Below, one piece after another: positions 15,732 through 61,175 of a DNA stretch of 64,000 nucleotides. Within the stretch, counting starts at the first letter, position 1. The number at the start of each line of letters is the position of its first letter. The notes below the pieces were generated by a model. It had not been told where the DNA came from. It did not search any database and was given only the letters and a program-made list of their open reading frames with translations. Source of the stretch: Ascidiella aspersa (taxonomy: Eukaryota); the NCBI GenBank assembly GCA_963924565.1, contig OZ004608.1, positions 28,396,001 to 28,460,000 of the forward strand. The letters run 5' to 3'. A program made the position numbers and the translations under genes.

Positions 15732-18700
15732 ATGGCGGAGCAACCAGAAAAGAAGAAACTAGAGAGCTACAGGTTCTGGGACAAGGTTTTAGGAAAACCT
15801 AAACTGATTGTTGCACCGATGGTCGATGCAAGTGAACTTGCTTGGCGAATGCTGTCACGAAAATACGGCGCCGAACTTTGCTACACCCCAATGTTGCACT
15901 CTGCTGTGTTTTGTAAAGATCCACAATACAGGTGACACATCCGACGTGTAAGATAATGTTAGTTTCGTTTGTAAACATGATATTTTGGTTTAATTAAGTA
16001 ATTTTTATCATACTTTGAGATACCAGTCTGAAAAATATGCTATACCTCAACGAGAAAACTCGGTTTATTAAAATTTGGGTGACTGAGTGCAACAAGGGTG
16101 AAAAATGAATTTACTTGTGTAATATATGAAAAGTCTTGATTACTGTTGAAAATATGAAGAGTGTACCCATAATTTTTTTTCAACAAAGCCAACCCGCACC
16201 CCAAAAAATCAAATATGTATCCGATTTTCTATGTGTTACGATATAGAAATATTACTTTGACTTTTGGTGCACCCGTCACATTGATTTTTTTGACTGTGCA
16301 CCCGCAAGATCTCATAAAGATGTGCAATACCTTCCAGCTGGAGTATGCACAACTGATAATTTTGGACCGATGCAAACTGTAGTGCCACATTGAAGCATTA
16401 AAAAGTTATATATTTAATTTTGCTAATTTCAGCTGTATAAACAACTTCTGTAGCTTAGAGTAGTTTTATCATTATTACATCAACTTTAAAAACCTTAATA
16501 TTGACACAATATTTTGGTTTATTAGAAAGGATGGCTTGGCCTCTTGTGATGCAGATCGCCCACTGATTGTCCAGTTTTGTGGCAACAACCCGGAGTACAT
16601 TCTTAAAGCTTCACTTTTGGCTCAAGACTTTTGTGATGCAGTCGATCTGAACCTCGGCTGCCCTCAGGTTTATTAAGATTAATTAATACTGAATATTTAG
16701 AAAAATTAATAATGTTTACTGCATAATAATTTACTGATTGATGTTTCATTACATATAAAAAAAAATCTAGCGTTGGTTTAGAATCCTACCTTTATTTTAG
16801 GTACAGAGTAACCAGTAGCCAAAACTGAAAACTGGGAGTATAAATATAATATTACTTGACCCACCTGAACCCTAATGCTAACCGACAACCTAGCCCAAAT
16901 AATATCCGTTGATTTGTTTATTATGTAAATGTATGGTAGGATTGTAGACCAGCGCCAAAAATCTTTATAATTTGTTCCCTATGTTAAACCATAAAATTGT
17001 TTCAGGCAATTGCCAAGAAGGGAAACTATGGAGCATACCTGGGAGAAAACTGGGAGCTTGTGAAAAAGATTGTAAAGGCTTGTCATGAACACTTATCTAT
17101 CCCAATTACATGTAAAATTCGTGTCTTTAATGACATCGAGAAAACTGTGACTTATGCGAAAATGCTGGAAAGGTTAGTTTAAACTTCAAGTAACTTTGAT
17201 ATGGAGTTATTAAAAATGAGGCTGCAAAAAAACACACTACTTCTAAAACTGTTGCAGTTTGCGTTTGGGGGTTAATTACAAGTTACATCTGTACCAAATG
17301 TTTCTATTAGTATTAAAATGTTGCTTTATTGCTGCCAATTTTAATATACAACTTATTTCTGTGGCATTTTTAAATTCATTCAAACGATCACTGTTCCATT
17401 CAGCGCTGGCTGCCAGCTACTCACAGTCCATGGACGCACAAAGGAAATGAAAGGACCCAAGACTGGAATTGCAAGTTGGAAGCATATTAAAGCTGTAAAA
17501 GAGGCTGTCAGTATTCCTGTGTTTGCAAACGGAAACATACAATACAAAGAAGATGTAGAAAGGTATTTTACCGTTTTACTTTTATAGTAATGCCACAGCA
17601 ATGTATACATCTACCTTAAATTTTCTATTGTTTTCACAAAAGTGTTAAAAAAATCATTTTATTGTTTGCTGTCATGTTTAATATAAAAATTTTTTGGCTA
17701 CCAAGATTGTTCGTTTATTTCTCATCAGGCAGTTTATTTTACATTTTGCTGGTTTATCAACATTACATGTATAAGATAATAACTCATTTTTATTTTAAAA
17801 AAGTGTGAAAACTTTATCTTTTTTTAAAAAGAAATATTTGTGTTGCTTTTAAGTGTTGCATGTTGTTTATTTGTTGTAGCCGCGACACACGGTTTGCATC
17901 TTGTTGTGCCTGTGTTGCATGTAAGGTCACTCAATTAAACTCGCGCTGCTGAGAATTTGTTATTCATGTTTGCCTACAAGAGCGTCAAATCTTTATAACT
18001 TGACAATTAATATAAATCATTTCAGGAAAACTTCTTTTTTTTACTTCTCGTTTTGTTTTATTGCTTGCCTTGTTTTAATTTTAAATTTCGCTGGTTAATC
18101 GACATTACGTGTACAAGATGATGAATAAGTTTTTTCAAAGAACATAAACACTTAATTTTTTTTAAAGAATCAATTTTTGTTTGAAGAGCATTAACGCTAA
18201 TACGTAGACAATTGTTGGTATTCATTTCAGGAAAACTGCATTTTTTGCTTGCTCCCACTCATTTTTCTTTCATTTTGCGTTGCAGGTGTCTAAGCGAAAC
18301 CGGTGTGGACGGAGTAATGACCGCCGAGGGCAATCTCTACAACCCGGCAATCTTCACAGGTGCCAGGCCCGTGTCCTGGGAGATTTCGCGCGAGTACCTG
18401 GACCTGGCCGAAGCCCACCCCTGTCCGGCCTCCTACGCACGCGGCCACGTGTTCAAGATGTGTCACCACGCCCTCCAGCGGCACACCGAGGCCCGCGACG
18501 CGATGGCGACGTCCAAGACGCTGGGCGACATGCGACGCGCCATGGATCTCCTACGCGACGTTTGTGTCACGACATGTCAGGGCCGCGATCAGGACGAGAA
18601 TCTGCCGTTTCCTCACTGGTTTTGCCAGCCTTATGTCCGCCCGGCTCCTAAACCCGATCCGCCACGTAACAAAACCGCGCCGGCCGAGGTGCAACCTGGC

Positions 18701-19003
18701 GAGGCGGTTTCCAAACGGCGTCTTAAGAAACTAGTCAAGCGCTGTCGCGACGTGTGCGACATGAGCGAACTGAACTCCTTGGAGCCAAACGAAAAAGCCA
18801 CCAGGCTGGCGGAGGCCTTGGCCAAGAAACAGGCCAACCGGCCCGTGTACGAAAAGTGCGTGGCGTGCGGCAATCCGAGCGGCACGCGCTGCGTTTTTCT
18901 CTCGTGCCGACGCTGCTGTAAGGCAAGGGCGCTTGAACTGCGGCGCTTCTGCCAGGCGCACAGACACTTTACACCGAAGGAGGCCGTCGCCAACAAGGGT
19001 TGA
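15732..19003 (+). CDS. DUS1L: tRNA-dihydrouridine synthase 1-like (~461 aa)
   Basis: Exons 15732-15931, 16526-16667, 17006-17172, 17404-17562, 18286-19003 (1386 nt, in frame). Motifs [29 protein letters not shown] (catalytic Cys), [30 protein letters not shown], and C-terminal Cys-rich CVACGN...CRRCCK...CQAH. AATAAA at 19207. Confidence 0.95.
16769..16955. mobile_element. Small foldback/MITE in DUS1L intron 2
   Basis: Imperfect terminal inverted repeat AGCGTTGGTTTAGAATCCTACC / GGTAGGATTGTAGACCAGCGC; the internal TTGACCCACC...CCCAAATAAT segment resembles the interior of the 37136-37620 element. Confidence 0.5.
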
Positions 19004-20826
19004 TGGTGTATGAACGCGGGGGAATAAGGTTTTCTCGCTCGCAATAGCTAGGTGAAGTCGCGCGAGCGGGCCAACTCTGTTTGGCGGTATTTATCTTTTT
19101 ATACAAAAGATCGCATACGCTCTTTTGATAGATTGGATTTTAAATTGTGGCCTACTATTTATCTTTTATCGCGATCGTAATGTTGTGCAAATACGTAGAT
19201 GTGGAGAATAAATGTTTCAGCGTTTAATGGGTGAATGTTAACTCCTTATGTCGAACTAACTTTTTTAAATATTTTTGCCAACATGCAACAAGGTACTTGC
19301 GAAGAAATGCCCACCATTTATTTTAGCTTTATTTTGACAATATATACAACATTTTTTAATGTATTACCGTTAAAGCAAGGTAATTTATATTATTTTTTAT
19401 TAAGAGCCTCGTACTTGCGAATTTATTAACAAGTACAGTTTATAAAAAGGGCAATTACGTTTCCTAAAAAATCCCTACTGCCCGACCTAGCTATTTGAGT
19501 GCATATATTGTAGTTTAGGTCAGTTCGACATTTCAAAAACCACTATTTTTGTAAAATATAAACTCATTGATTTACTAATGTGAACCCCAAGAAACATTTT
19601 CTGCTTATACCATGCTTTTTTTTCCAGAGACTGTTGTCCAAAAAAAAACTTTAACTTCTAATTTAAAAAAAAAGCGCTTTGCATTTACTTCAACCCCGGA
19701 AACGCTATAAGCTTTGTTAAGAAATGAACATCGCAGTTACTAATTAACGGAATCGACCTAACGGTAGATATTTTAAAATACAAAATGGGAATGTGTTATG
19801 TGGTTTATAGTTTAGTTCTAATCTAACTTCCGAAGTTTCTGAAATTGTTACTTCGTTACAAAACGCTTTTAATCTCTTGTTCCGGTACGATTTTATGCCA
19901 TGTAGGCCCAATACTGAACGCCAAACGTGTCAGTTTGGGTGAACAGTTTTTTTTTCATTCACATGCGTTAGAATAAAATTTAAAAAAAAGAATGTAAATT
20001 GAACTTGTTTTAAAATAAAATATTATTTTGTTAAGATCTTAGTTTAATTTCAGTTTTCGCAGGTCCCTTATTTTTTTACTCGTAGTTAATTTGAAAGGTA
20101 AAATAAAATCTTGTTTTTTGTTTGCCTAACAACTTAAAGTATATCTCTCAGCAGTTGTTTACGCTACAACACTACTGACGAGTGACGTGATATATATTTT
20201 ACAGAGAGAGATATTTCGGCTGTAATTACCGGAAGTCACGCCACTATCCTATTTTGAACTATAGTTGTTAAACTTCACCTTATTACTTCTGCTTTATTGC
20301 TAATTCTAAAACTGCTGAAGTGATTCGATTAAAATTATATATATATATATAATTATTTGATTATAATTATATCATGTGAGTGTAGGTTATTTCCTATTTT
20401 TACCTAGTGAGAAATCTTAATAGACACGTACGTTGAAAAGTAAATTAACTGCTACTAATACACGTCCCATAAACATGATTAGTCCAGTTATCAAATCAGA
20501 ATAAGAATGACACAAGTCTTTTCTTATTCCTGCTAATATACAAAACAATCGACTAAATGCGTTGTGTTAAAATGAGTTAATGAGCGGGTTACACACCGTG
20601 TCCGATTTTTTAGATAAATTTGGACCCACAACAAATTCTATCTATTTATATTGACAGCATTTGAGAGTATTATATAAATGTAACAAAGGGTGATAGGGTT
20701 ATATATCATTTGTTAGTTAGTTAAAGCATATCGCAAAGCGAGCTAGTGTTCGATTAGGTAATGAAGTCTGATTGTAACTCTGAAAACGACATTACTTTAA
20801 TCACAGCTTTCACATGTGAATTGGAA

Positions 20827-23800
20827 ATGTTGAAAGACAATAAATATGCTTCTGTGTGCTGCTTGTTGGCCTTCGTTCTGTGCGTTGATACTTCGTCGTG
20901 GCACAAATATAACGGATACGAATACTACGTTGGAACATCGAACGGAAATTACACGTTTGCCGAAAAATCATGTAGCGACCTTGGAGCACAACTTGCAACC
21001 ATCAAAACGAAAGATGTCCAGGATTTCTTGGTAAACATCATAGGGACCTTGACAGGTAAGTTGCTATAAAAATATAATTGGTCGATACAGTAAAATAATA
21101 AATATTTAAGTTGCTTGCATTAGATGAAGGCAATAACTAGACATTAATATGCATGAAAACAATTTTATAGCAATATTTAAAAAGCTTACGTTTAGCGCCC
21201 TACAAAAATCAGTTATTTTATTGGGCTACCTGCGATTACCCGTCCTGGAATCTCAACTGTACGAAACTTATAATCTAAGAGACATTATAGGCACCTAAAA
21301 GAGATTCGCACATTGCTCGAAGAAAACGGCATTTAGAATCTAATTATACTTTTAAAGTTTATGAGGAATGCATAACATGCAGGGAGTGAAAGTTAAAAAA
21401 TGTCTTTCTGAAACGACGATTTTTTTTACCGGATGGCATAAAATGTACATAGGAGATGTCACAAAGTTACGTCATTACTGGACGTCTAGACTCTAGAGTA
21501 AGTCTAGGTTATCTTTTGATGTAGTGCACTCATATTCAACTAAAATATAAATCTTACATACATTCGAGAAAATGGCGCGATGGCTTGTAAAATACGGCGA
21601 GTAAAACCCGAGTCTCTAGTCCGACGTGCGCATGCGCAGTTCCAAATTTACAAACTGATATTGCCGCCAATTATAAACCGTAAAAGTGTATTAAAAAAAA
21701 ATGGTGGAACATTTTCCAACCGTGTATTGTGAGTAAATAAATTACTATATTACACCATAAGGGAATTTCTGAAAATCTACCTTAATTGAGTTGCGTAGGC
21801 CATGTGGTAAAATACATGCTGTAGAGTGGGAGCGTGATTTGGGCTCGACGAAATTGCACATTTAGCCGGAGTCGCACTCGGTACGTGGGAGTCGGACTCA
21901 GGTTTAATTTTATGGCCGGAGTCGGACTAGGGAGTTGGACTCGGGAATTGGACTCGGGATAATTTTAACGGACTCCGCAACCCTGCTAACAGCAGATCTC
22001 TAAAATTTATTATACCTCAATTCGTCCCTTTCCCTTGATATGCGTGCTCGTTAACGTGTTACACTTGTTAAGTTTCTTTCAATATTTAAAATGTAAAAAC
22101 ACTTTTTTAAATATACTAATAAACCAAGTCATATTATTTGCGAACTACTATCACCTAAATTTTTGTTTCAAGAATTTCCCTATTCTCTTTACATCGGACT
22201 CACTCGCCACAACAATTCGTCGCCGTTCGTTTGGTCGGATTCGACTTTATTAGATGACAGTCTGGCCCAATGGAGGCCCGGCGAACCGAACGATTCAACT
22301 GAAAATGATGAGCTGTGTGTGATCATGGGCTGGTTGTACAGTTTTGACCCGTTGTTCAAGTGGATTGACATTTCGTGTCATCAAAGATCGAGATACGTTT
22401 GCCAACGAGAAGTTTCAGGTAAGAAAATCCTTTGTTCGTCATTCGTTCTGCCGCTAGTTGCGCATTTGCACACGAGTTTGACCAGGAACAAGTTTAGTTT
22501 CTTAGGATAACTTGAGCCACGACTTAACGTTATGACGTTATTTATGACGCCATCTTTAAACTGTCCATGACCCACCCATAAACAGAAATCATATAGACGC
22601 CACTCTGAGTGATGATTTTTCAAATTTGTATTTTTTCTTATAGTATATCGGGATTGTTTGGGACAAGCATTTCTATATTTGGAGTTCGAATATTTAGTTT
22701 ATTTGTCTCACTGTTTCACAGTTACAACTGCTCTGTCATCGGAAACTAAAGCAATCACAACACAAACATCGAACACAAAAACATTTGAAGGTAGATCAAT
22801 GCAATCAAATGATTAACTTTAATTGTTACTGAATGCAGAACTTAGACATAACACTAGGTTTTTCGAACCATTGACATTTTATCAATAAACTAAATTAAGT
22901 TGTGTCGCAAAACATTTAAAACCTTATGTCATGTTATATATCACATTTTTTCTTATAGTATATCGGGATTGTTTTGGACAAGTATTTCTATACTTGGAGT
23001 TCGAATATTTAGCTTATTTGTCTCACTGTTTCACAGTTACAACTGCTCTGTCATCGGAAACTAAAGCAATCACAACACAAACATCGAACACAAAAACATT
23101 TGAAGGTAGATCCATGCAATCAAATGATTAATTTCAATTGTTACTGAATGCAGAACTTAGACATAACACTAGGTTCTTCGAACCATTGACATTTTATCAA
23201 TAAACTAAATTAAGTTGTGTCGCAAAACATTTAAAACCTTATGTCATGTTATATATCACATTAACAACTATTTAAAAATACTGAATCGTTCAGTATACAG
23301 TAGCATAACAAAAGTAAATCGAAAAACCTCTACAGCTCTACCAACAACATCAACCGAAACGGCGACTGCACTGACAGAAGGGGAGCCTTCAGTTGACGTT
23401 CGCGTGGGCAGCACAGCGGAGCCTACGGGTAAAGCTTCACTGGGCATCATGTCCAGAATGTTTGGTGAATTAGAAAGTGAGAAATTATCGACCTTTTTCA
23501 TGTTTGTTTGTTATGCTTTAGTAAAATTAAAAAATGTCACAGAACTTGTCCAACAGGGCTTCTCGAGTTAATTTCTTTCTTAAACAACGTTGCCTAAACT
23601 AAAATCAAAAAATCAAAACAACATTTGACTGATATTTATTTAATTGAACAGCATTAGTAACTGTTATATGCCTTCTTTAAAGGTGATCATGAACCCTGTG
23701 TTGATAGTAGTATCGTTCAATTAGACCGGACTAATTAAAAAAAATAAAGTGTCTTTACATCACCCCGTATAGCTAAACATTTTATATGCAAAACAAAATA

Positions 23801-26800
23801 AAGAAAACGATTTTTAAGACGCCACCACAACACCCACTGCAAACGCCACTTCAGCGAATCCCGTTTCGGGACTTTTAACAACGATCGGATCAGCGGCTGG
23901 AGGAGGGGTGATAGGAGGGGTTCTCGTTGTTGGAGCTGCTACGTTGGCGAAAAAAATTAAAGGCGGCGGAACTGGGTAGGTTTGCTTAACAACTTTAACG
24001 TTAGTAATTTTTTGTTTACGTAACATTATAACTTACTGTAGTCCCGGGAACGGTCGACGTTCTTAGATAATTTTAATGCATCCAACTATGCTTACCAACT
24101 TAATGACAGGGGCGGATCCAGGATTTGTTTTTTTGCTGGGCATCAATATTTTCGAAAATGCATCAAAACGTGACATCATAGCAAAAGCAACTGAATATTC
24201 TGCGCGGTATCTTTTAAACAAATTTGCCAACGTGCAGCGGAAATAAATTATATTGGAAAAACACGAAAATGACGAAGAGTTTGTGCATAGCGCTATAAAA
24301 CATTTTAATTTGTGGGAAACGTGCCGCATTGGGACACAAAAAGATCTCATTGTTCGATAAAAAAGTGTTTTTGGGTTGTTTCCATTGATCCAAGATCTAT
24401 ACGGTTGTCTACTAATCGCTTGAAAAATTTCCATAAAATGCATTCCATTTTCTTGGATTTCAAGTTAGAAAGGGGTCATTTACGATACTGGCCAAATAAC
24501 AGATACGTTATCGACCCTCGAAAGTTCAATAATGGGGATTTTAGTAATGTGACATTGGTTGCCAGGCGCCTTTAGCTATAAAGATTCGTTTAAAACGAGC
24601 GAAAACCCACCAGAAATAAATAACCTCTTGAACCCCCTGTATAACGGCTATTAAACAAAAGCTTAAAAGTAAAATAGATAAGAGATGATCCATGCAACTA
24701 TCGCTAGTTTTAATCGCAAGTTTCATGTATCGTCAACGGTTTTAGCTTATTTTATTTTCGTATTTGTACAGTCAATTGTTGATATTCAATCCATTCATAT
24801 TTTAAAGGGTGGAAAAAGTCAATGTGATTCAAAAACAGACCAAGACCCACACAAAAGGTAAGTCTAACTTAAAACCTACCAATATATATTGTCAATTAAA
24901 GTAAAGTACTGAACGACTATTTAAAATTCATAATATGATTCACACTAAGTTAACCGATAAGTATAGAAAATACATCAATATCTTATTTTTGCTGAAAACT
25001 TTATTTTTTTAGCATCCTAGTTTTAACTTTTTTATTTTGAGAAGTTTATAGAACAAATGGACCATGTGATTCTGATTTTGATCAATTCTAACAGGCGTAA
25101 CTTTAAAAGTACAAAGTTCATTTGTAAAATGTACAGTCAAGTAATATATATAGTTTTTTTTGTTTTAATTTAGATTTGATTAACGAACCGCAAAACGTTG
25201 TCGGAAAGCAGCGCAACGCACAGAAGAAACGACGAAGCCATAACACGAACGCAGTTGTACCGGTCACAAGGAAAAGTAAAACAGCAAAAAAAGGCCGACA
25301 CCAAAAGAAACAGATTCCAGCGAAATCGCAAACTGATAAAATGGTTATCGAAGTGAGCGACGACGAAGAGTTTGTTGAGGAAGAAGGAGAGGAACACGGA
25401 GAGGAAGAGGATGAAAATTTCGACGAGGATGAAATAGAAGAAGACGAGGAATATACCAATGAGGAAGAAGAACAAGATGTAGAAGAGAATAACAATGTCG
25501 AGAGTGGCGAGTATAGCGAAGAATATAACGAAGACGATGTTGATAGTGCGGGATTTTCGAATTATGAGGAAGAACAAGACAATGTGGACCCTTTTCCGCC
25601 TGTAATGACCACCAAATTTCAACAATCCAAGGCTCTTAGAAAAACGGCAAGGAAAAGGATAGCAAAGGCAACGCAAAGTAAAGGAAGTACAAATAAAAAT
25701 ACAAATAGACGAGTAAGTCCGATTCCTCGTATTCACAAAGGCAAACCTCCTAAAGTACAAAGTAATTCAAGACCGAAGGTTGTTGAGCGACAAACGAAAA
25801 AAAGCATGTGGGTTGAAAATGAAATCGAGGCAAAGAAAAGAACTGCAAATGCTCAAAGAAGAACTCCTCAGAAAAGCGAATTCCGCAACAGAAATAAACC
25901 AAGGGCAGCGACACGGGCTAAATCGGCAGGTTCACCGAAAAGGTTACACAATACTAAAATCATAAGCACTGCACAAACCACCGCAGAGCGAAAAGCTGCC
26001 AGGGAACTTCAACATAAAACAGATCTCATGTTGAACCAAGTAGAAGGTAAGCAAACGCAATGGCGAACAGTTAAATAAATTAGAAAAACTCATTTGCAGT
26101 GTGTAAAATTAAAGAAAGATACCTATGGTATAAAATAACGCCTATTGTGAGAAAATAAAATAAAGCTTAGAAGGAATGAACCAACGCAGGCCCGGCTAGA
26201 GGTGATAACCGGTGGAACAGATTCTAGTCCCCAAAATAATAAAATCAAATTTACACCGGTAACACAATACCCAGCGTTTAAATATGTGTAGGCCTACTGC
26301 GGTTTCGAGTAATATATTATATAGACCTATTCCTGTAGTAAATATATATAGGCAAATAGGCTACTCTGCGGTCATGCAATAAACACAGTAATCCACAAAC
26401 AAGGCCCTTTAAATTAACTTTGAGACTCACGTTATGCATCTTACTGCTCATTCTGAAAGCAAATGTGCATGTTTATTACATTGGCTCGAATTGAGATAAT
26501 CGTTTTTAAAGACTGATCTAGTTTTGCCATTTGGTGTGGTTTAGTTGTATAATCATGTGCAAAAAATATTTACCGGGAACTTACGCATAACTGTGCAATC
26601 TAAATTTTGACTTTTTAATTGCGTAGAAGTAACAAGAATGCAGAAACCACTTCCTGCTTTACCTGGAGAAGAAGATCAGTTCAATTCAGCAGACGACTCG
26701 TTCGACGATGATGAAAATGATGTGATGACAACAGAAGGTAGTCAAATACTTTTTAACGGTTTTCTTAAATGAAAACGTAACTAAAGCCTATAAAAGACAC

Positions 26801-31992: not shown

Positions 31993-34900
31993 TCAGTGTT
32001 CGTGAGTGTACGACATCGGCAGCCCACTGCGTCCCTCTTTGGCGACATCTACCGGCGTTTCACCCAGCTTTTGTTCGAGCCCTTGCCATGAACGCTCGGC
32101 GTAGAACTGAGCTGCAGTTTGAAATGTACAGGAGATATTAGATAAGCATATGAAAATAATAGGAAATAATGCAGTAGCAAGAATGTGTGCTGTTCTTGTT
32201 TGACTTCACCACTGCATATGAGTGCATTATTGACGACAGATTTTAGCATCGACAGAAACCAAAACTTAATAATATTCCGAAAGTTTATTAACAAGTATTG
32301 AGAGTAGGGATATTCGATAATATTGGATATGCCCGATGCCAAGCGGTCAGTATTTATCCGATACCAGGGAGTAGAGTGATATGTGTGCCGATCCCAAAAC
32401 AAATCTCAACATTTCGGCCATGGTTTTCGATCTAATTCCACTTTGAAAGTTCATTAGAAACTACCAGATTAAAGGTAACTAATTAAGTTTTGCTTAAGAA
32501 CCGTCAATTTGAACCGATTTGCTTAGTGATCATAGTAATAACGTCATTCGGAATCAGTACTTTGTCATTACTTTTTGTATAACGCGTCAAGCATTGATTT
32601 TGGAATGAAATACATATCAGAGTTTGGGAGATCTAATTTACAGTCGTTAAAAATAAGAAAAAATAGTTCCTTGATAATCCAAGTAAGAGTCATTGTTTTG
32701 TATTGAAGAAACAATAGCCTATCCAAAAGACAGTTGGCTGTTTTTTCGTTCGGTGAAGTTAAATCAAGTTATAAAATTAGTCTTTTCAAATGTACGTATA
32801 AAACACGTTTGCTTTACTCTTACCAGAAGAAAACGGATGAAAGACACTTAAGGCTTGTTGCTTTATAGTGTCGATTTGTTTATCGGCATCAGATGGATTC
32901 AACAAATTGGAAGCACCTTCAAGAACTTTACCAGAAATTAGGGAAACCGTCGCCTCATCCTGGGGGCTGAACTCCACAAAATGCTTTCCACCTAGACAGA
33001 AAAAGTTTGGCATTAAAACAAATTGCTGCAACACAATGAACAAAAAATCGATTCAGTAACATTCGGTTAAATTTCAGCAATACGAGCATATAAAGCATAA
33101 AAAATTGGAAAAATAATTAACTCAAGGGCTGAAAAGTTGAAACACGTGTTGGGAGGTTAAATTTATATTTGCAAGACATAGATTTAACGTAAGTTTAAAC
33201 CTAACCCTATTTCACTCAGCCATTTTAGTAAAAACGCGTTTTTCTAGGATAACTCTGGTCAATTGGAGGTGTAATAACGCCATTTTGCTGTCCATGGCAG
33301 CACTGGCTGCGTCAATAGGTAAAACGCCCTGGTTGGACCCGCGTGACAATTTGATGTGGCCCGCATCAGAATTTTATCGTATAAAATGTGGCATCGAAAG
33401 TTAAAACAGCCAAATTTTTATGTACAATTATTCCCTTGATATCACTTTGTGTATTTATGCGCTATGTTAGTTAAGCGATTAAATATATTGTAACGTGAAT
33501 TTTTTTTTAATGCCACCCATTTAAAAACTGGCCATTTTTGCAACAGCCTCTTGGTAGTCTATACTTCCAGAATCCAGTGAAGTACATTTTGCCAGGCAAG
33601 TGTATATGTATTTTAGAAATTTTTCTTATTTTCTATTGGAAATATTTTTTAGGCCCGCCTGTATGTGCAATGTATCCAGCAGTACTGAACAGGTTCCATA
33701 TTTTTGGAATATTTAAGGTACGCCTTCTCTGACATAAAAAATGTTAAACGAGTTAACGCACCTGGCAATAGATCGGTAAAATCGGTAACGTAGGCTTCCC
33801 CCCACTCCCTGTTTGCGTTGCAGGCCACTTCCACCTCGTACGGAGTCGCTATCGGCTTGTAGTAGTCACTGGAATCGACCAGCGCTTCCTCGGGACAAGC
33901 GACCAACACGAAAACGTCAATCTGGTAAAAATTGGAATATTGAATTACAAAGCCATAAAGGTCGAGTAGGTCGACATCATCTTGATTATTGTACACATTA
34001 TAAAAAAATGATAAAAGCAAAAATGAATAAAAAAACATCTTAATAATCAAGATGATGTCGATCTGCTCGACCTTTTTTGGCTTTGCAATTCATTATCAAG
34101 CTACATTACACATCCGTGTATAGTGTACCCAAATTGGAATAACATTTGGAGGAATAACAATGCAATGAACGTTTTGTTTACTGTTCAATACATTTGGCAC
34201 CGCCGCGATTGAAGTTTCAAGTTCAAGTTTTTTTAGTTTTTCTCCCCATCCACGATCAATACAATGCACGCAAGCAAACTAGAAAAGTGCATAACGTCAC
34301 TGAATTAGGGGAAGGAGCAGTCTTAAACCAAAAGCGGTTATACAAAGAGACTGACCCTACTAATTTAGCAATAATTTAGAGAATGGATTTGCAAAGAAAA
34401 AAAAATGCGAGGAAATAATCATATAAACACAATTACGACATTTGCAAGGAAGCAATTATATAAAAATACACAATTACGCACATAGTGATGAAGTTCGAAA
34501 CGGGACACGGCTCTTCACAGGTATAATGCTTTTGCGGAACGTAGAGAGTCTTGCTTACTACTCGCAGTCAAACACAGAAAACTGTCGTACCTCTGGGAAG
34601 TTGGCCAGCTTCTGCGGGTTCAGCTTGCCCACAACAAACGTGTAGCTTTTCTTTCCGGAGCGCTTCAGAATGTCCTTCAGGTGCTTGATGATCTCCCTGA
34701 ACCTGGCCATGCCCATGGTGCCCACGAGGATGCCGACCGTGTTTGCGTCTTTCACTCTTTCGCTCACGTAGTAGCGCTTCATCAGCATTCTTGGCATGAC
34801 ACAAGAGAAAGAAGTTTTTTGATTTTTCTGGCAAACTGTACTACCGCTTAGGCTAGAATAATTTGCACCTCTGCAAACCAGCACTGCGTCAAAAATATTC

Positions 34901-37900
34901 GTACAGATTATAGATGATTGGAAAACTGGTTTCTCAAAAGTTTTTTTTCGGGGGGGAGCATGATTTTTTTAAATGACCTTAAGTTGCATCATCATGTGAC
35001 GCCATAAAACAATAATCATAAGAAAGCTGCTATTCTCGTTGTGCGCAAGCTTGTGAAGCTGAATTTGAGTTTGAAGAGAAGGTGGCATAATGCGATGCAC
35101 AATAAATGCCGCAGTTTTATTTAAAATAGCAAATCGTGTTTACAATTTGTTTGAGTAATCGTAATTTGCCTTTACGGACAGTTACGTTAAAACGGGCAAA
35201 ACTATAATTTGGGGGACAGACCTGAACCCACCCCTGATATAAAGAGTACGCTTTATGTTGGATTGAACTAAAACAATCACGCTTGTTCTTACATTATGTG
35301 CGTTGTTAAATGTTATAGTGAACATTTTCCTAAAAGAAGGTGAGAAGAGTTACAGCTCCATCGTTAAATTTGAAAATTTTGCTTAGCTGGCAGAAACCGG
35401 CGCCGGGCCGTATTTTGCACAAGGCTCCTTTAGACACTTTACAAGGGATACTAAAATTAAAGAAGGTTAAAAACCACTCGTCTGTTTAAACCAGGACTGC
35501 AGATTCGGTTAATAATAAGCTGAGTCCGTCTCGGCCGAACGAGTGCGACTAATGCTTGAGTCCCGGCTCCAACTCCGTATTGAATCTATTTTTGTAACCA
35601 AAAGGAGGTGGATATACAATATACAGCTATCCAATTATAAGGGTGCTAACATTACCCAGCGGTAAAAGAATATTTAACTATATGCTATTCCATCTTAACG
35701 ATTACAGTTTGCAGCTTTCTAGTTTTCGCACTTGCTACATGTGCATGCCGGACTGGGGATACGAGTAGTTTTATGTAGTCCACTCGAGTCCTGAGTCTGA
35801 CAGAAAAAACAACTCCATTGAGTCCCTAATCCAACTCAGACTCCGCAGCAATGGTTTAAACATTTAAAGTATCTGTAAATTGTCATATACGCCATAATCA
35901 ATTTATTTTGAAGATAAATAAATAACCTCACAAGAACTGTGTAAAACCAGTTTTTAGAAATGTTTTATAGCAAAGGGTGCTTTTATCTAGTTGCAATTTT
36001 CACACTTGCATATTTGTCTTATGATGCCACACAAGTCTACAAATATCCTGAACAACTGAGATTTACTTGTTGATAGTAGATTTCAGTTGTGAAGTGTGAT
36101 TCGAAGAAGGGTCATAAACACATCCCTGCAAGGCTGGGTGTTTCAACTGAAAGTTCCTCAACATTTCACTATTTTCTTGGCCAATGAAGAAAACTGAGTA
36201 ATCATCAAGTTTGGTGTCTTCATGCAGTTTAACATAGAAAGATTCAAACTGGTATTCCTACGAAATGGAGTAAAAAAACAGAATTGGATCTTAACAGCTT
36301 TAGACAATACACTGAAACAACTGGAGTCAACATTAAAGTTAACATTTGCAACAAACTCTTTTGAAGAGTTAGCAAATAAAGCAGCTTGATAAAAAAACAC
36401 TAACGCATTTTTCTGGTTATTTTGGCCTTAATTCAGTGGTTTCAAACTTGTTTATTCTGTTGCCCAAATTTTGTTTATAACACATTTGCGGTCATAAACC
36501 TTTCTTGCACAACCTTTAGCTCATTTTCCAAATAAAAAGCATCGCCCTGATTAATATATAAAGCGAAATTAATTCTAACAAAAACTGAATAATCCTTTAC
36601 CTCCCGATCAGTTTTACATGGAATTGAATATCTTTATCAACAGACTGCTGGGCCCTGGAGCACAGTTAGGGAACAACTGCCTTAATTGAAGGTAACTAGT
36701 AAAATGTAAATACTCCCAAGTAAGGTATTAAAGTAATTTGTATATTTATTATTGGGGTTGATTAGCTGGACTTCCATTCGCTTACCAAAGGATCAGAGGA
36801 CAAAACTTCCTTTCGTTCTGGCAGCTTTTCAGTTCGACAAGAGCAATCTGGACAAGAGTTGGTGCAAAAGTCCTCATCTTGCTTTGTGGCATTCTCCACA
36901 GAATCAGTGGCAACACCAGGAAGGCGAATTCTTGCCATTGTAACATTAACGTAATCGGAAGCAAGTTTTTCATAGAAAGAATCTGAACAAAGCCAGTATT
37001 ATATGTTATTTATATATATATTTCATGTTCTAAACATTCATATAGTTGGTCAAAGGGTTACAGTAGACATTTTAGATAATGTTTGCATAATTATATTAAC
37101 GGCTGAAGTATGACATCAGGCTACATGCTGATTATCACCCAATCCGTTAGAAATTAGTGGATTTCTAAGCAAAAAGGTCTACGACAATTAGTCCATCCAA
37201 TGGATCAAAAAGTCTGACTTTTAGACTTTGAGGTCTCAGGCAATGCACCAATTTGACTTAACAATGTGCTTCAAAAGATTAAGTTTAATAATGTTTGACC
37301 TACCTAAATCCAAACGCTAACCAGCACCCGAACCCAAATAATGTGCGTTGAATTAATATTTACATAAACGCTTTAGGCTCCAATGCCTCAATTTGTGACG
37401 TAACAATCCTATGGTACCATAGACGAGAAACTATCTTATGCCCACCCAAGTTTGTGCTTTTTTCCCAGGGTTCATATAATTATTAAATTTACGCACATTA
37501 TTTGGGTTAGGGTGGGTCAAGTGTTATTAATGCCATTTCACACTTTTTGTAATTTTTTGTGAATGTAATTGTCGTAGACCTTTTTGCTTAGAAATGCACT
37601 AATTTCTAACGGATCGGGTGTGATTATTGTATCTATATATGCATCAAAAATTATTTTGCTTGATATATATATGGATATATATAATAAACATAGATTGTTG
37701 CAACATAGAATATATTTTGATTTTGTTTATATCAGTGGTCCTTCAAGAGGTATTGTGTTTTTTATTATTATTTATATAAAGAATTTGTGATAGTTATTGT
37801 AAGGGCCTAAAAAATGATTTTATTTATTTATAAGTTTATAACACTAGAATTTTTTATAAGTACAATAACATGTTTCAATATATACCAAAATAATTATAAA

Positions 37901-38973
37901 AATGCTTGCATAAATATACCTAATATATGCACATAGGACACTTGAGCTAAAATGCAAATCTTCTCATTGACGTCTTTAAAAGATTGCCTGAAAGAGTTGT
38001 ACATGTTGTCCAAGTTAAGGTGCCTCCCACCGAACACATAAAGTGTTGGTATCTTAGCATTGGCTGTGACAGCTGCTTTACCATAGTGAATAATGAGGTC
38101 AGCTTGGATGTGCTGTGCTGCAACTTCGTCCACATCATAACTAAAAGTTTAAAATATTTTTTATAATTTAAGCTAATGGCCACACCTTCACATACATCTT
38201 TTTTGGGATAATATCACATAATGTTTAAATTGAAGCAAAATAGAAAAACATTGGGATGGTTAATAACTGTTTACATAAAGCTTACTGTTACCTACATCTA
38301 TTTTAAGGATTATGTTGTTGCAAAACATACAAAAACTAATGAATAGTTTTAAGCATAAAAAATATACATAAAAGTTTAACTTTGTAATTATGTTTTTTGT
38401 GGGTTGTCCCACCATTTAAAAATAGATTGGGAATGCAAACATAATTCAAAGTCATGCTATGTTATATCCTTTTGAGAACATAACAGTAACAACAACCTTC
38501 CATATGAAGTGTCCGCAAGCAAATAGACATTTGCAGATGTTCTTTTTTGCATCTCAAGTGTCACCTGAGCTGCATCAGGTAACATGTAATCTGGAAACTG
38601 CAGCGCCACGCTGGTACAAAGATTCTCCTAAAAAATTAAAGAAAAGTAACAGAAGTGCTGTGGTGAAAATATTTCAACTCAAAAAGTACACTATATTTCT
38701 ATTCAGTATTTAATATAGATTCTTGAGTTTCAGGAAATATAATTTTTAAATTTACCCCCATTTTTACCAAATAAAACCATATTTACTGTAGTTAGAAACA
38801 AAAACATACATAGTAGTTAAAACCAAAAACATTACTTTGATATAATGGGCACATCTTTCAATCTCATATATAGTGTTTAAGTCAGAAGTTGTTGTTGTCT
38901 TGGAAATCAATTCTTCTGTATTGGAAACGCGAGACAACACTTCCAAATCGCTGGAGCTAAAACCAGATGACAT
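31993..38973 (-). CDS. DPH2: 2-(3-amino-3-carboxypropyl)histidine synthase subunit 2 (diphthamide biosynthesis protein 2), ~507 aa
   Basis: Exons (-): 38973-38836, 38627-38497, 38140-37920, 36982-36786, 36257-36067, 34789-34591, 33921-33762, 32991-32824, 32111-31993 (1524 nt, in frame). Motifs [91 protein letters not shown]...GRSG match eukaryotic Dph2. Confidence 0.95.
33941..34092. repeat. ~50-bp-arm inverted repeat (hairpin) in DPH2 intron 6
   Basis: 33941-33990 (…AAGGTCGAGTAGGTCGACATCATCTTGATTATT) pairs with 34042-34092 (AATAATCAAGATGATGTCGATCTGCTCGACCTT…). Confidence 0.85.
35492..35853. mobile_element. hAT-type MITE in DPH2 intron 5
   Basis: Perfect 8-bp TSD GTTTAAAC; degenerate TIRs (CAGGACTGCAGATTC / GACTCCGCAGCAATG); GAGTC/GACTC subterminal repeats. 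Confidence 0.7.
36434..36679. mobile_element. hAT MITE in DPH2 intron 4
   Basis: CAGTGGTTTCAAAC ... GTTAGGGAACAACTG with perfect TSD CCTTAATT. Confidence 0.75.
37136..37620. mobile_element. Foldback element with ~55-bp near-perfect TIRs and 7-bp TSD in DPH2 intron 3
   Basis: CACCCAATCCGTTAGAAATTAGTGGATTTCTAAGCAAAAAGGTCTACGACAATTA and its reverse complement ending at 37620; flanked by TGATTAT on both sides; an additional inner inverted pair is present. Confidence 0.85.
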
Positions 38974-47907: not shown

Positions 47908-50111
47908 ATGACGACATCGCGGCATCTTTGGATGATAAGCGTCGCTTTGGTACTCTCAGTAACTTTCCAAATGAGCGGTAAGTAACTTAAACGTTGTAAG
48001 TAAAGCGTATAATTGTATTGTCCGCGAATTTGTTTTTTGTTTGAAAGTTAACTATATCGAAAATTAATTTGTTCATTCTACGTTACATACTACACTATTC
48101 CTTTTAGCTAAAATGCGTTAAGTCTTAAATTTACAGTTTTGCGTATTACTTCAAACCGCCAAACAAACCTTGCGGTAATTAATTGCAATATTATTTCCAT
48201 AAACATGAAAAACAAAATTATTTGAAGAATGAAATAAAGAGCTTATTTTGTTGGTTTGATGCAAAAGTTTTTTTTCTAAACTCAGACTTGATGGACTGTT
48301 AATAAGATGTTACCTTTTTATATTGTTGCGGGCGTTTTTCATTTCCTTCATTGATTTCGGCATGCATTGTATGCAATAGCGTTCGGTGTCATTCGCCCTG
48401 AATAAGGCAAATTGTGTGTATGTTGTCGAAACGTTGGAGAACAAAAAATACCAGTGGGGACACTTTGATTATAAAGATGCCTTGTAGCAACAGTTTATAG
48501 AATATTACAATACCAACACTGGCAAAATGAAACGTTTTTGCCACTTTGCCTAAATTTTAACTCTTTGTTTATTTTACAATAGATGCCGAACACGGCGGAC
48601 AACAATCACCGACGCCAAGCAGGCCTGTCCCAACTGGAATGATGGAAAGAATGACAACAACCGATTACGTTGCAATGTCGGGCGATAGGACAACAGCAAC
48701 ACATCATATGAGCGGCGATACGACAACATCAGTACACATGACGTACCCTACACACCCAACTACTCATACCGGTCCACAGCCAAACTACACAAGCCCAACA
48801 CCAACTCAACCAGGTCCATCACCAACAGGACCTAGCCCCAGTCCAACTGGTCCAGCACCTACTGATGAGCCAGGTACTAGATTTGCTAAAATATTCTTAG
48901 AGTTTTTATACCAAATATAACACCATTCTTTATTTCAAATCAAAATTTTATTTAAAATCAACCAAAAAATTGTCTAATTACAAATCCCCTTTTTTCGTAC
49001 GTGCACAGGTGGCATGCAGACGTACGCGTGTCAGATGGCAGCTTATCGGGAAGCTATGCAAGAGTACTTCAAGGTGGTGAGGATGTATTCCAAAATTAAC
49101 GGTGGATGCGGATGTGGAATGGGTGGACATGGAGACGGCATTGGTGGAAATGGTGGAGGATACGGTGGAAATGATGGCGGAATGGGCGGAAACAATGGTG
49201 GAATGGGTGGAAATAATGGTGGAATGGGTGGTTGCGGATGTGGAATGGGTGGGCACGGTGGCGGAATGGGTGGAAACGGTGGTGGCATGGGTGGAAACGG
49301 TGGCGGAATGGGTGGAAACGGTGGTGGAATGGGTGGAAACGGTGGCGGAATGGGTGGAAATGGAGGCGGAATGGGTGGAAATGGTGGTGGAATGGGTGGA
49401 AACGGTGGCATGGGTGGACACGGTTGCGGACAGGGTGGACACGGCGGTGGAATGGGTGGAAACGGTGGCATGGGTGGAAATGGTGGCGGTATGGGTGGAT
49501 ACGGTGGCGGAAACGGTGGAAATGGTGGAGGAAACGGTGGGTGTGGCTGCGGACAACATGGTGGTGGCATGGGTGGAAATGGTGGTGGAATGGGCGGAAA
49601 TGGTGGTGGCATGGGTGGAAATGGTGGTGGAATGGGTGGAAATGGTGGTGGCATGGGTGGAAATGGCGGAGGAATGGGTGGAAATGGTGGCGGAAACGGT
49701 GGAAATGGTGCTGGCAACGGTGGTGGACATGGAGGCGGAATGGGGGGAAACGGCGGCGGAATGGGTGGACACGGAGGCGGAATGGGTGGAAATGGTGGAG
49801 GAATGGGTGGACATGGTGGCGGTATGGGTGGAAATGGTGGCGGTATGGGTGGATACGGTGGCGGAAACGGTGGAAATGGTGGCGGAAACGGTGGGTGTGG
49901 CTGCGGACGTCATGGTGGTGGCATGGGTGGAAATGGTGGTGGCATGGGTGGAAATGGTGGTGGAATGGGTGGAAATGGTGGTGGCATGGGTGGAAATGGT
50001 GGTGGAATGGGTGGAAATGGTGGTGGCATGGGTGGAAATGGCGGAGGAATGGGTGGAAATGGTGGCGGAAACGGTGGAAATGATGCTGGCATGGGTGGAT
50101 TTTGGTGGTAA
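47908..50111 (+). CDS. Secreted Gly/Met/Asn-rich repeat protein (~487 aa), probable extracellular structural protein
   Basis: Exons 47908-47977 (signal peptide MTTSRHLWMISVALVLSVTFQMS, GTAAGT donor), 48583-48873 (Thr/Pro-rich), 49009-50111 (short helical segment, then GGGMGGN heptads with GCGCG motifs, ending GGFWW*). All phase 1; 1464 nt in frame. Confidence 0.85.
49100..50105 (+). repeat. Coding 21-nt tandem repeat (GGN GGN ATG GGT GGA AAY GGN) with ~354-nt higher-order duplication
   Basis: Variation falls mostly at third codon positions of the Gly frame; GTGTGGCTGCGGAC recurs at 49541 and 49895. Confidence 0.95.
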
Positions 50112-51467: not shown

Positions 51468-54400
51468 TTAACGGTAAAAAATAAGAAAGGTCGATTCGTA
51501 GAGAGCTTTCTTGGCGCACCAAACGTCCGTAGCATTCTGTGAATCGTTCCAACAGAGCGAGGCAAAATCACCGCAGTAGTTGGCATTCGAGTTGATGCCG
51601 GTCGATCCAATGCAAGCGTGTTGAGGATGACTGAGTTTGTTCACTTTAACACCGGGACACAACGCGAACAAGTTTCCGCTGATGTCCACCACTCGAAACT
51701 GCAATAAAGCCCGGTAAAAAATCATTACATTCAGTACCAAAAACTTTCAAACCTGCTGTAAAAATCTTATCGGCTGCTGTACTAGAAATTCGAATAATTT
51801 ATTAAGAGTAGTTTTTTAGATTCGTCACATACGTCATAAAAGTTTGGCAAAGTTAATTATTATAATATATTAAAATTTGAACATACACTTTTTAAGATGA
51901 GTAAACTAACCAGGCTTACGTTTGTGAAATATGAAAAAAAAACTACTTTTACTGCCATATCTGGGTAGTATTTAACTACTTGAATAGACTGAAAACACAT
52001 CCATATATTCTTGCATTTTTTATAATTTAAAATATATTTGTTGCTTTTGTGGCGTATAGACAGATAGGTCAACAAAACTACATTTAGAATAATGTCGCTG
52101 TAGAAAAGAAACAACACTTTACTTTCAAAACTAAAAAATGTAGTAAAACTAAGTATCTGTGTGAGAATTGATCACAGCGGTTTACTTATACCTGGATATA
52201 ACATGGTTCCACTTTGTCCTGCACGTTTTTTCCCAACTGCCAAACAAACAATGAAGAGTTACCGTGATCCATGTGGACTTCCGGACTTGGTCCGTTGTCC
52301 CCTGGAAACGTGTAACTCCCGGTCAATTTGTAATGGTCGCGAAAAAGTCGGAATAGATTTCCGCCGTAGAGTTTCAGAAAACCGTCGCGAGTGTAGTACC
52401 GCAGGTGGGCGCTGTTCTGCCACATGCTAACGTCGACGTCGTTCGGAACTTGCCAGATCATCACGTTTTCGGCTGTGATACCTGAATACCCTAAAATAAA
52501 ATAAAAGGGTAAAGCATTTAGTAGGTTTAAACCTATCAACCAACACCAAGTTTGTAGAGCTGGCAAATGTATTTTTTTTTATTCCAACGTTTCGACGTCC
52601 TATACAGGTCGTCTTCATCAGGGTAAATAACACTGAATGCGACCATGAACATCAAGGTAAATAACACTGAATGCGACTAGTACAGTGCACGATAAACAAA
52701 GGAAAAAAGAAAAAGGAAAAAAAGAATGGAACGCAAGCAACGCAAACACCGTTGTTATTAACCAACACGTTTGCAAGTCAGCTTGAATAATTAAGAAAAT
52801 AGTTGTTGGCTGAAATTTACCTGTACCGGTATATTTAATTGTTATTATTTTACAAAAATCTGCTTTGCTGTTCAAGGCTTTCCAGTCAGCATGCCTCAAT
52901 CAAGCCCTTTTAAACGGCTGACGACTTTCAATTTTTAAACTTTGTTCTAAAGCAAGCAAGCAAGTACGCTTATATAGGTGTATTTGATTTTAAGTTACTT
53001 ATTTAATTTAATTTACGACAAAAACACCATAAAATGAATTTTTAAACGCGGTAGGCATTTTTATAGCAATTGTAGTCGACATAGCCTTCAGCTGAATGAC
53101 GTGATGAATAAATGGTTGGGCACGCCTGTCTTAAAAAAGAAGTTTAATCCGAATAAATTATTTACTGCACTACAGGGCGTTAAAAACATTTTAAATGTAT
53201 TGCTAATATTTCAAAAGTTTCAAATCGTTATTTTTAATTTAAATCGTTACACTGCAGGGATCCAGTTATCGCTTATGACTTTACCGGAATTTTTGTAGTC
53301 GTCATTCGTCGCAGACGCAACCTTTCCCAACGTAATCGTATTCGACCAGGCGGCGCCACCTCGCGGATAATTGTTGCCCTGATCGCTGGACCATCTATCG
53401 CCAGTCGTACAGCGTCCAGTAGAAGTCGGGTTGTTGTCGTGGACCGATGCGACCAGAGTCCAGCCGCCTCCGTCCGTGGTCATGTCGCAATAGGTCTGGT
53501 ATGACGCGCCGTCCGGGTCCTTTAAGCTGTAGATGCCGCTGCGCAGCTCTTCAATACTCGGAAAGTACCTTACGTCCTTACAAGACGTCAAATCACCTAT
53601 GAGGAGCACAGTAATACTGATTTAGTTGTGGAACAGGCGTTAGCCTAGTTTTTTTAAGTAGTTTTTTGAGTGTGAGTATATATCCATTAGTGAAATTAGT
53701 GTAGACGTAGAATGGCACTTACTTCGTAAAAGATCAAGCTTTCCTCGTATATTCTGTGAATTAAAAAAAATCAGGGGTTTCCAAGTGATATGCTATAAGA
53801 AAATGCTTATACATTAATTACATTTGAAAAACGTTGAAAGTAGATTTACCATAAGCGATGTACTAATTTTCATATTCTACCAGATTTATCTTTATACGTC
53901 AAATGCAACGTTACCTTTTATAAAATTATACAAATTTATACGGAAATTATATAGTTACACTTTTGGTACTACTAGCCGATAAAAACTTACAAAGTAGTAC
54001 AGTACTCCAATAGTTCCGTAGGATATAAGACTGGCCAAAATGGCGATTATTCTTGAAACTGAACAACCCTTTTTGTTAGATTCTTTGACAAAAATGCATC
54101 AGTCAAAAATTTAGGACAAATTGATACAAGCTTAGTAGGCTACTTTTGCAGGCCATTTTTTATTTATGTTTGGACTGTTTATGTTTATTTGTTATCAATT
54201 TTTTTTAATTTACTTAAATTCGCTTTTCATTTTTTAGAACTTTGTGATGTTTTCTGGGAAATTTGTTTTTAATTAGTAAGTTACTGGTTTTACAAAAAAT
54301 GTAAGTAAGTTAACAACCTTAGAAATAATTTTTTAAATCAATGTTATGCAAGGGCTATAACAACTTGTTGCAAAGTTTAGTTTTCAGGTTTTTCATACCT

Positions 54401-59750: not shown

Positions 59751-61175
59751 CTATTTTAGGCTTTGATGATTTCCCTGGATAGACTTGTTCAAAAGCGCTT
59801 GCCGCTCAGTCGAAATATCCTCAATTTTTTTTAATTTTTCCTCAGCATCCAATCGCTTGTTGTTTGGCCGAAGAAAACAAGACAAAACAAGCATGAGTAG
59901 AAAGCAGGTGGTTTGGAAAAGAAAAATTCCCGTCACCGAGGTCGTTTCGAAAAACAGCCTTCCCAGCTCTGAAGTCACGAGAGATTCAAGAAAATTAATA
60001 CCTGAAAATAAACTCGCGACGAAGGCCTCTTTCATTGGATAAGTAACCTGGGTAACTGCTTCCAAGACCGGAATCTGAATTATTCGAACCGAAAATCCAA
60101 TTATAAAGTTGCAAGCATAAATACAAGCAATGCTGTCCAAGTAATAACCAAGCAAGACGATTAAAGTAAACAAGATCAAAGCCAAGGCTCCTACTCTTAT
60201 TTGAAGCACAGGTCGGTGGAATTTGTTTACTAACCAGCCACTAAACGCAGCTCCGGGTAAGCCCCCAACAGCTAAAACTACCACTCCCCAACTGCCTATG
60301 ACGTCAGGATTTGCGTCGCTGCCGCTTTTGGCAAACATCTTACGAAATATTTGCGACATCATAAGGTACTGAGCCGGGTTGCTGTGGTCTGCTAGACCTC
60401 CAATGGTTGTAACAAGCAAAAAGCGCCAATTTGAAAATAGGGCCTTTAGCTCGCCCCAGTAACTGACAGATTCAATCGAACCTTTGTCAATTTCGTCTTC
60501 ATTTTGTCGGAGCTGAACCAAGGTCGGTGGGGTCGGCGGTCGATCAGTTAAGTAAAATATCATGAGAAGGAGAATAGCGAAAAGTAGAACAAGCGGTGTG
60601 CCGTAAATAATATAGGCGTATTTTCTATCGACGACCAGCCATTGGCCATCTGCTCGCCTGCTGTGATTTCCTGCATACGGCTGCTCCATGACTTGACTAG
60701 GCACGATGCATCCTGATATTACACCAATCGATCTGCCAAAAAATATCAGGGCGTATGCTGTTCCGAGTTCCTTGCTCGCAAACCAATAAACTGCAAACGC
60801 CGGTATTAACGAGAATGAAAGAGAGTTTCTAACACCCTGTATAAACTGCCCCAAGACTAGTAGAGGGAACAAGGTTCTACGAGAAAACGCTGCGAGCATG
60901 AAAGTATATGAAGTGATAAGCAGAGATGTACAGGCTATAATTAGGGCCCGTATTTTGACAAGACCAACGTACACCAACCACGCGACAAGCAAGGTAACTG
61001 CAACACTGCTCAGTCGATTTCCTATCGAAACCCAGTCCACTGCAACATACGACACTTTAAAATAATCCACATAGATGTTGCTGACTTGCGTTGAAAGCGT
61101 GTTGACATACGTTATCATAAAGTCCATTGTAGCAAGAGCTACAAGAAAAAGCCATCTACGTTTGTAAAGCTTCAT
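59751..61175 (-). CDS. Intronless FLVCR/SLC49-like major facilitator superfamily transporter (~474 aa from first ATG)
   Basis: Single long ORF with about 12 hydrophobic segments; family-typical KLYKRRW, VDWVS, GQ, WF..KE..TA, PPTPPT, E.TYP motifs. The ORF is open upstream to 61232 (TTG), but the first ATG is at 61175, matching the ATG position of the paralog. Confidence 0.88.
   Translation of the reverse strand: MKLYKRRWLFLVALATMDFMITYVNTLSTQVSNIYVDYFKVSYVAVDWVSIGNRLSSVAVTLLVAWLVYVGLVKIRALIIACTSLLITSYTFMLAAFSRRTLFPLLVLGQFIQGVRNSLSFSLIPAFAVYWFASKELGTAYALIFFGRSIGVISGCIVPSQVMEQPYAGNHSRRADGQWLVVDRKYAYIIYGTPLVLLFAILLLMIFYLTDRPPTPPTLVQLRQNEDEIDKGSIESVSYWGELKALFSNWRFLLVTTIGGLADHSNPAQYLMMSQIFRKMFAKSGSDANPDVIGSWGVVVLAVGGLPGAAFSGWLVNKFHRPVLQIRVGALALILFTLIVLLGYYLDSIACIYACNFIIGFSVRIIQIPVLEAVTQVTYPMKEAFVASLFSGINFLESLVTSELGRLFFETTSVTGIFLFQTTCFLLMLVLSCFLRPNNKRLDAEEKLKKIEDISTERQALLNKSIQGNHQSLK

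Follow-up and report, generated by a model that had tools for sequence, protein, structure and literature searches.

The DPH2 gene and its surroundings

The window, i.e., the whole 64-kb stretch of Ascidiella aspersa DNA analysed here, carries a DPH2 gene on the minus strand. Its exons were located by tblastn with Phallusia Dph2 as query and then joined at GT-AG sites, which gave nine exons, eight GT-AG introns and one stop-free frame of 507 residues, in agreement with the initial annotation that had described the frame as intact. Exon 1 (38836..38973) starts with the ATG at 38973 and was assigned from the tblastn match to Phallusia Dph2 and the frame, as were exon 5 (36067..36257) and exon 8 (32824..32991). 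Exon 2 (38497..38627) ends with the DTSYG motif and a phase-2 GT donor, exon 3 (37920..38140) contains three lost ligand sites, exon 4 (36786..36982) encodes a variable loop, exon 7 (33762..33921) encodes a retained ligand cysteine and exon 9 (31993..32111) ends with TGA. PF01866 is matched above cut-off in exon 3 (E 2.9e-17), exon 6 (34591..34789; E 1.5e-19) and exon 7.

At the exon 2/3 junction GGA AG/gt at 38497 joins ag/T TAT GAT at 38140, and the protein reads GSYDVDE and then HYGKAA. The columns of the yeast-type cluster ligands were mapped via conserved motifs in an alignment that has no named yeast row, with the yeast numbering taken from PMC11048331. The tandem cysteines (yeast C106/C107) are replaced by Tyr91-Asp92 (38134..38139, minus strand) and the third ligand (C128) by Ala113 (38071..38073, minus strand), and the last one (C362) is kept as Cys368 (33897-33895). 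This is what had been read from the window at the outset, i.e., tandem Cys to Tyr-Asp, third ligand to Ala and final Cys retained, and it matches the codons TAT, GAT, GCT and TGT; the yeast ligands given at that time agree with those in PMC11048331.

The neighbouring regions at 375-12600, 18185-19003, 20758-22510, 53247-53621 and 59751-61289 hold genes for a WD40 protein (presumably coatomer alpha), a Dus-family gene, a C-type lectin, a fibrinogen-domain protein, which we take to be intelectin-like, and a single-frame MFS transporter. No neighbour gene is linked to DPH2. On the plus strand, a 316-codon open frame at 25128-26078 without a Pfam match encodes one acidic and one basic tract, and its end is presumably similar to a histone H3-like helix. 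A further plus-strand frame at 48978-50111 (377 codons, Gly/Met/Asn repeats) has scattered CGCG units and is open in several frames.

An artefact or gene decay, i.e., a wrong splice, an assembly error, a pseudogene or a spare copy next to a canonical DPH2, is hardly credible as an explanation for the missing cysteines and is already largely refuted. A transcript form that restores the cysteines had been named beforehand as speaking against their loss; none was found when joins of exon 2 to exon 3 at GT/GC-AG sites were enumerated, as tandem cysteines appear in 0 of the 11 one-intron and 0 of the 366 two-intron forms with an open frame. Database entries for Phallusia, Clavelina and Ciona also have the Tyr/Phe-Asp junction peptide, as do two proteins from contigs that scarcely exceed the coding sequence. 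Nor was a canonical DPH2 paralog, likewise named beforehand, found among the best candidates scored: a PF01866 search of the 309-Mb genome gave two loci, the DPH2 of the window and one DPH1, and a canonical amphioxus Dph2 as query gave the same two loci and no second DPH2 (seven matches among the 10 best candidates). That the genome searches rank best candidates only speaks for a hidden copy; the frame open over 507 residues and the recurrence of these substitutions in four ascidians known by name, and in other proteins from three of their clusters, speak against any artefact.

An out-of-frame TGT TGT opens intron 2 (38484-38496, minus strand), exactly where the tandem cysteines have been lost. 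None of the splice forms brings it into frame, and its occurrence at the start of the intron is probably due to chance.

Ligand loss in tunicates and other eukaryotes

For comparison 295 proteins were gathered by two word searches and a HMMER search; a word search with exon 3 as query gave no match. The alignment held 279 proteins of at least 300 residues and the window protein, P0186 being swapped for its full-length cluster mate P0308, and 264 rows were scored once 16 that were gapped or poorly aligned at the ligand sites had been removed. All four cysteines are present in 250 of the 257 non-tunicate rows, three in one (Trichogramma) and at most one in six; the sample, ordered by similarity to Phallusia and rich in fish, under-counts divergent lineages, and 6/257 is not a eukaryote-wide rate. 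The ligand cysteines are not commonly absent in this sample; their common absence in animal Dph2 had been named beforehand as a finding that would weigh against an unusual loss. Tunicate-clade Dph2 has exactly one of the four cysteines in 7/7 rows. Styela retains the one in the C106 column; the window protein, Phallusia, Clavelina, Ciona, P0036 and P0308 all retain that in the C362 column, and because the retained cysteine differs no single one is fixed in tunicate Dph2. A bulky Tyr or Phe occupies the first ligand column in six of the seven, Asp92 is invariant in all of them, and His100 and His108 are kept.

The seven tunicate-clade rows are monophyletic in two quick trees, with an SH-aLRT of 100 in one and of 97 in the other, where two fragments are nested inside; P0036 and P0308 are put in the clade by tree alone. 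The window Dph2 pairs with that of Phallusia, to which it is 65% identical. No protein named as Oikopleura was among the matches listed. The loss, which the initial annotation had described for this gene, is real, but it is a trait common to all sampled tunicates and recurs in other eukaryotes.

The nearest database matches of the window protein are named subunit 2, a separate DPH1 locus exists in the same genome, and the tree groups it with Dph2; domain, predicted fold and tree all identify it as a Dph2 orthologue. The AlphaFold model of the Dph2 of Phallusia, a relative of the window protein, has a mean pLDDT of 85.7 and matches archaeal Dph2 in Foldseek (E 2e-19 to 6bxo). Eukaryotic Dph2 (yeast Dph2, human DPH2; PF01866) shares with the tunicate protein the orthologous sequence, the predicted fold, the DTxYG, HxG, GKxN and ANF motifs, the C362-equivalent cysteine and the presence of an intact gene for the partner Dph1 in the same genome, whereas the tunicate protein is without the equivalents of C106, C107 and C128 and has a four-cysteine loop. 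Judged by its ligand residues, the window protein would fall outside the cluster-binding type of yeast and human. The archaeal Dph2 homodimer (3lzd, 6bxm, 6q2d) shares the predicted fold and the Asp at the second tandem column, but its subunits are catalytic and have three ligands; the tunicate subunit has one, and its loop is inserted beside the second archaeal ligand.

Conservation was measured against 142 canonical representatives with less than 60% identity. In these, 42 columns are at least 90% conserved, and five of them are altered in at least 5/7 tunicates, namely three ligands, Ser115 (to Thr/Val) and Leu318 (to Met). In tunicates the 38 non-ligand columns are retained at 0.90-0.92; the canonical proteins have a median of 0.97, with 0.84 as the 5th percentile. 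The loss in tunicate Dph2 is directed at the ligand site. In addition, 21 columns have a residue that is common to six or seven of the seven tunicate proteins and rare elsewhere.

Ligand-poor Dph2 outside the tunicates comprises the proteins of the sponge Corticium (XP_062504438) and the green alga Myrmecia (KAK9814668), both among the six rows with at most one ligand cysteine, as well as P0195, P0201, P0249, P0273 and P0276. P0276, a seventh loss protein that was among the removed rows, is without the tandem cysteines and the last one. A single clade of the 13 loss rows was rejected (AU p 0.0012; quick tree of 32 hand-picked rows), and ligand loss arose more than once, with separate origins outside the tunicates. 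As in tunicates, three or four ligands are gone and the other conserved columns are mostly kept (0.87-0.97); they differ in that the C362 column is lost in all of them, their origins are separate and CX3CX2C is absent. Over the non-tunicate sample the C362 column is missing from 6/7 rows with a broken tandem and from 0/250 intact rows, a co-loss with a Fisher p of 2e-11 when kinship is ignored. The ids flagged for independent ligand loss are P0171, P0195, P0201, P0249, P0271, P0273 and P0276.

Literature searches on Dph2 in Ciona or tunicates and on natural ligand loss found no report among sources that included few subscription papers and excluded supplements, where ligand-poor alignments possibly stand. 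The ligands of Dph2 have been called conserved from yeast to man on the basis of five eukaryotes, in PMC11048331. Ligand-poor tunicate Dph2 is real and, apparently, an unreported variant of a known enzyme.

The four-cysteine loop of exon 4

In the variable loop encoded by exon 4 the window protein has a CX3CX2CXC motif (Cys203/207/210/212; 36837..36866, minus strand). A CX3CX2CX1-2C loop is present in six of the seven tunicate-clade proteins, spanning Phallusia, Ciona, Clavelina and Styela, and CX3CX2C is found in 0/273 other rows anywhere in the protein; shuffled loops yield this spacing in 0.2-0.8% of trials. The four cysteines are the sole invariant loop columns in the six proteins, and their flanks are 17% identical (58/334 pairs). 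The loop therefore matters for something, since the four cysteines are invariant amid such divergent flanks. It lies directly ahead of the second archaeal/Dph1 ligand column and is anchored beside the cleft.

It is tempting to speculate that the loop holds an Fe-S cluster or redox-active iron and, in place of the lost cluster, passes electrons from Dph3 to the Dph1 cluster. This is the main rival to a Dph2 with an empty pocket, and we regard it as possible, if on the whole doubtful. The distribution of the motif, its rarity in shuffled loops, its placement just before the ligand column and the identity of CX3CX2C with the classical radical-SAM cluster spacing, as given in PMC10669111, all speak for such a relay, and if the loop does hold iron it would be a rare example of a cofactor site relocating inside an enzyme. 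On the other hand P0036, a member of the tunicate clade, has the ligand losses and no motif, and motif gain and ligand loss both trace to a single ancestral branch, so that their association counts as one event. The loop is also cysteine-rich in ligand-intact Dph2, where at least four loop cysteines occur in 46/250 proteins without fixed spacing, often as CC pairs in low-complexity sequence, and CX2CX1-2C in 4/250. In the Phallusia model the loop has a pLDDT of 57-61, and zinc is also compatible with four cysteines.

The loop profile matched no Pfam family, the Atlas search with the loop gave no usable match, and in the PDB the profile had one weak match, to the metallothionein 6grv (E 9.2 across eight residues). 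No radical-SAM Pfam domain was matched in the loop or in Phallusia Dph2. The likeness to classical radical-SAM CX3CX2C is one of spacing alone, as the tunicate motif sits in a variable loop, has a fourth cysteine and comes with no radical-SAM domain; the window protein is not a classical radical-SAM protein. Loss without such a replacement does occur, because CX3CX2C is absent from all six loss proteins outside the tunicates; the loop contains one cysteine in the sponge and none in the green-algal model, and cysteine richness of the loop showed no significant excess in these six over the 250 canonical proteins (p 0.09).

Cluster state and the diphthamide pathway

Catalysis in yeast takes place at the Dph1 cluster, whose reduction by Dph3-Cbr1-NADH is aided by the Dph2 cluster (Dong 2019, in the summary of PMC8153317). 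According to the same source the Dph2 cluster is required in vivo in yeast, and its role is termed "far from clear" in PMC10669111. Dph3 is additionally said to donate the fourth iron (in the account of PMC8251694). The question posed is whether the second cluster is an obligatory electron relay or a replaceable stabiliser, and proteins with repeated natural loss of the site, one of them in the genetic model Ciona, make its purpose testable.

The reading that we prefer, and to which we give about an even chance, is that the DPH2 of the window, a single-copy tunicate gene missing three of the four cluster cysteines, encodes a non-catalytic partner of Dph1 with an empty pocket and a loop that would bind metal on its own. 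A single thiol would be unable to hold a [4Fe-4S] cubane, and Tyr/Phe91 may occupy the space vacated by the cluster. Dph1 would cleave SAM on its own cluster, Dph3 would supply it with iron and electrons with no relay through Dph2, and Dph2 would serve as the second half of the dimer, a structural partner. The loop may then be a separate, tethered metal-binding module that is not strictly required for electron transfer. An empty pocket is consistent with the intact frame, with a site-specific loss in all sampled tunicates, with intact Dph1 ligands and with the presence of DPH3-6 and of the eEF2 histidine. In agreement with this, a single cluster suffices for the archaeal dimer in vitro (Zhu 2011, cited in bioRxiv 2024.09.16.613322), and diphthamide is still detectable in yeast C106,107S, according to PMC11048331.

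Two facts weigh most against an empty pocket: the yeast double mutant is nearly null, and most tunicates retain Cys368. Yeast C106,107S is almost without activity and its dimer is destabilised (as described in PMC11048331), and human C341Y, a variant at one ligand, lowers activity (as described in PMC10538292); given these mutants, a cluster-free Dph2 would need compensation. The C362 column is kept in 6/7 tunicates, yet it is lost in all six other loss proteins, and an empty pocket leaves this retention unexplained. The invariance of the loop cysteines and a retention of conserved columns that lies below the canonical median also count against it.

The initial annotation had left the choice between a Dph2 that lacks the cluster and one that ligates it otherwise, and the sequences would favour the former. 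A cluster held at the canonical place by Cys368, Asp92 and at least one loop cysteine is improbable, although Asp92 occurs in all seven and Cys368 in six of the seven tunicates, His100 and His108 are kept, and the loop anchor adjoins the cleft. Asp is the archaeal residue at this column in all three solved sequences (Cys-Asp), which makes it weak evidence for new ligation and led us to downgrade Asp92 as a new ligand; it may rather be a return to the archaeal Cys-Asp pattern. In P. horikoshii this Asp points away from the cluster, as reported in PMC11048331. Furthermore, Styela has no cysteine in the C362 column, the first ligand column is bulky in 6/7, and the tether that follows the motif is about 20 to more than 100 residues long, measured to an approximate column.

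It is also conceivable that a pathway step has been lost or rerouted, with little diphthamide made, or with a Dph1 homodimer, and Dph2 kept for another job. Mutation of these cysteines in yeast or human removes most of the activity, and the 21 columns with residues particular to tunicates would fit a new job. We consider this quite unlikely, more so than a cluster in the old pocket, since DPH1, DPH3-6 and the eEF2 histidine motif are present in the same genome and most conserved Dph2 columns are kept. DPH1 has an uninterrupted frame at C2:32.149 Mb (L002, a locus separate from DPH2), and its product keeps GACCVDD, VLGC and SSCPRL, the three ligand motifs, aligned to the three archaeal ligands. 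Exons of DPH3, DPH4 and DPH6 were found, and likewise of DPH5; the names of DPH3-6 are provisional, given at the level of exons from Pfam matches and known motifs. Two eEF2-like genes (L011/L013 on C1 and L014/L015 on C7) both have the HRGGGQ diphthamide-histidine motif, and the copy on C7 is divergent.

Upstream of DPH1, a flavoprotein domain (PF02441), presumably PPCDC-like, ends 9 bases ahead of the first ATG of DPH1 on the same strand and in the same frame (L002:754-2541, C2, ~32.148-32.150 Mb), and an AG stands immediately before this ATG. Trans-spliced operons are described in ascidians in PMC1488885, and the arrangement of the flavoprotein and DPH1 fits such an operon.
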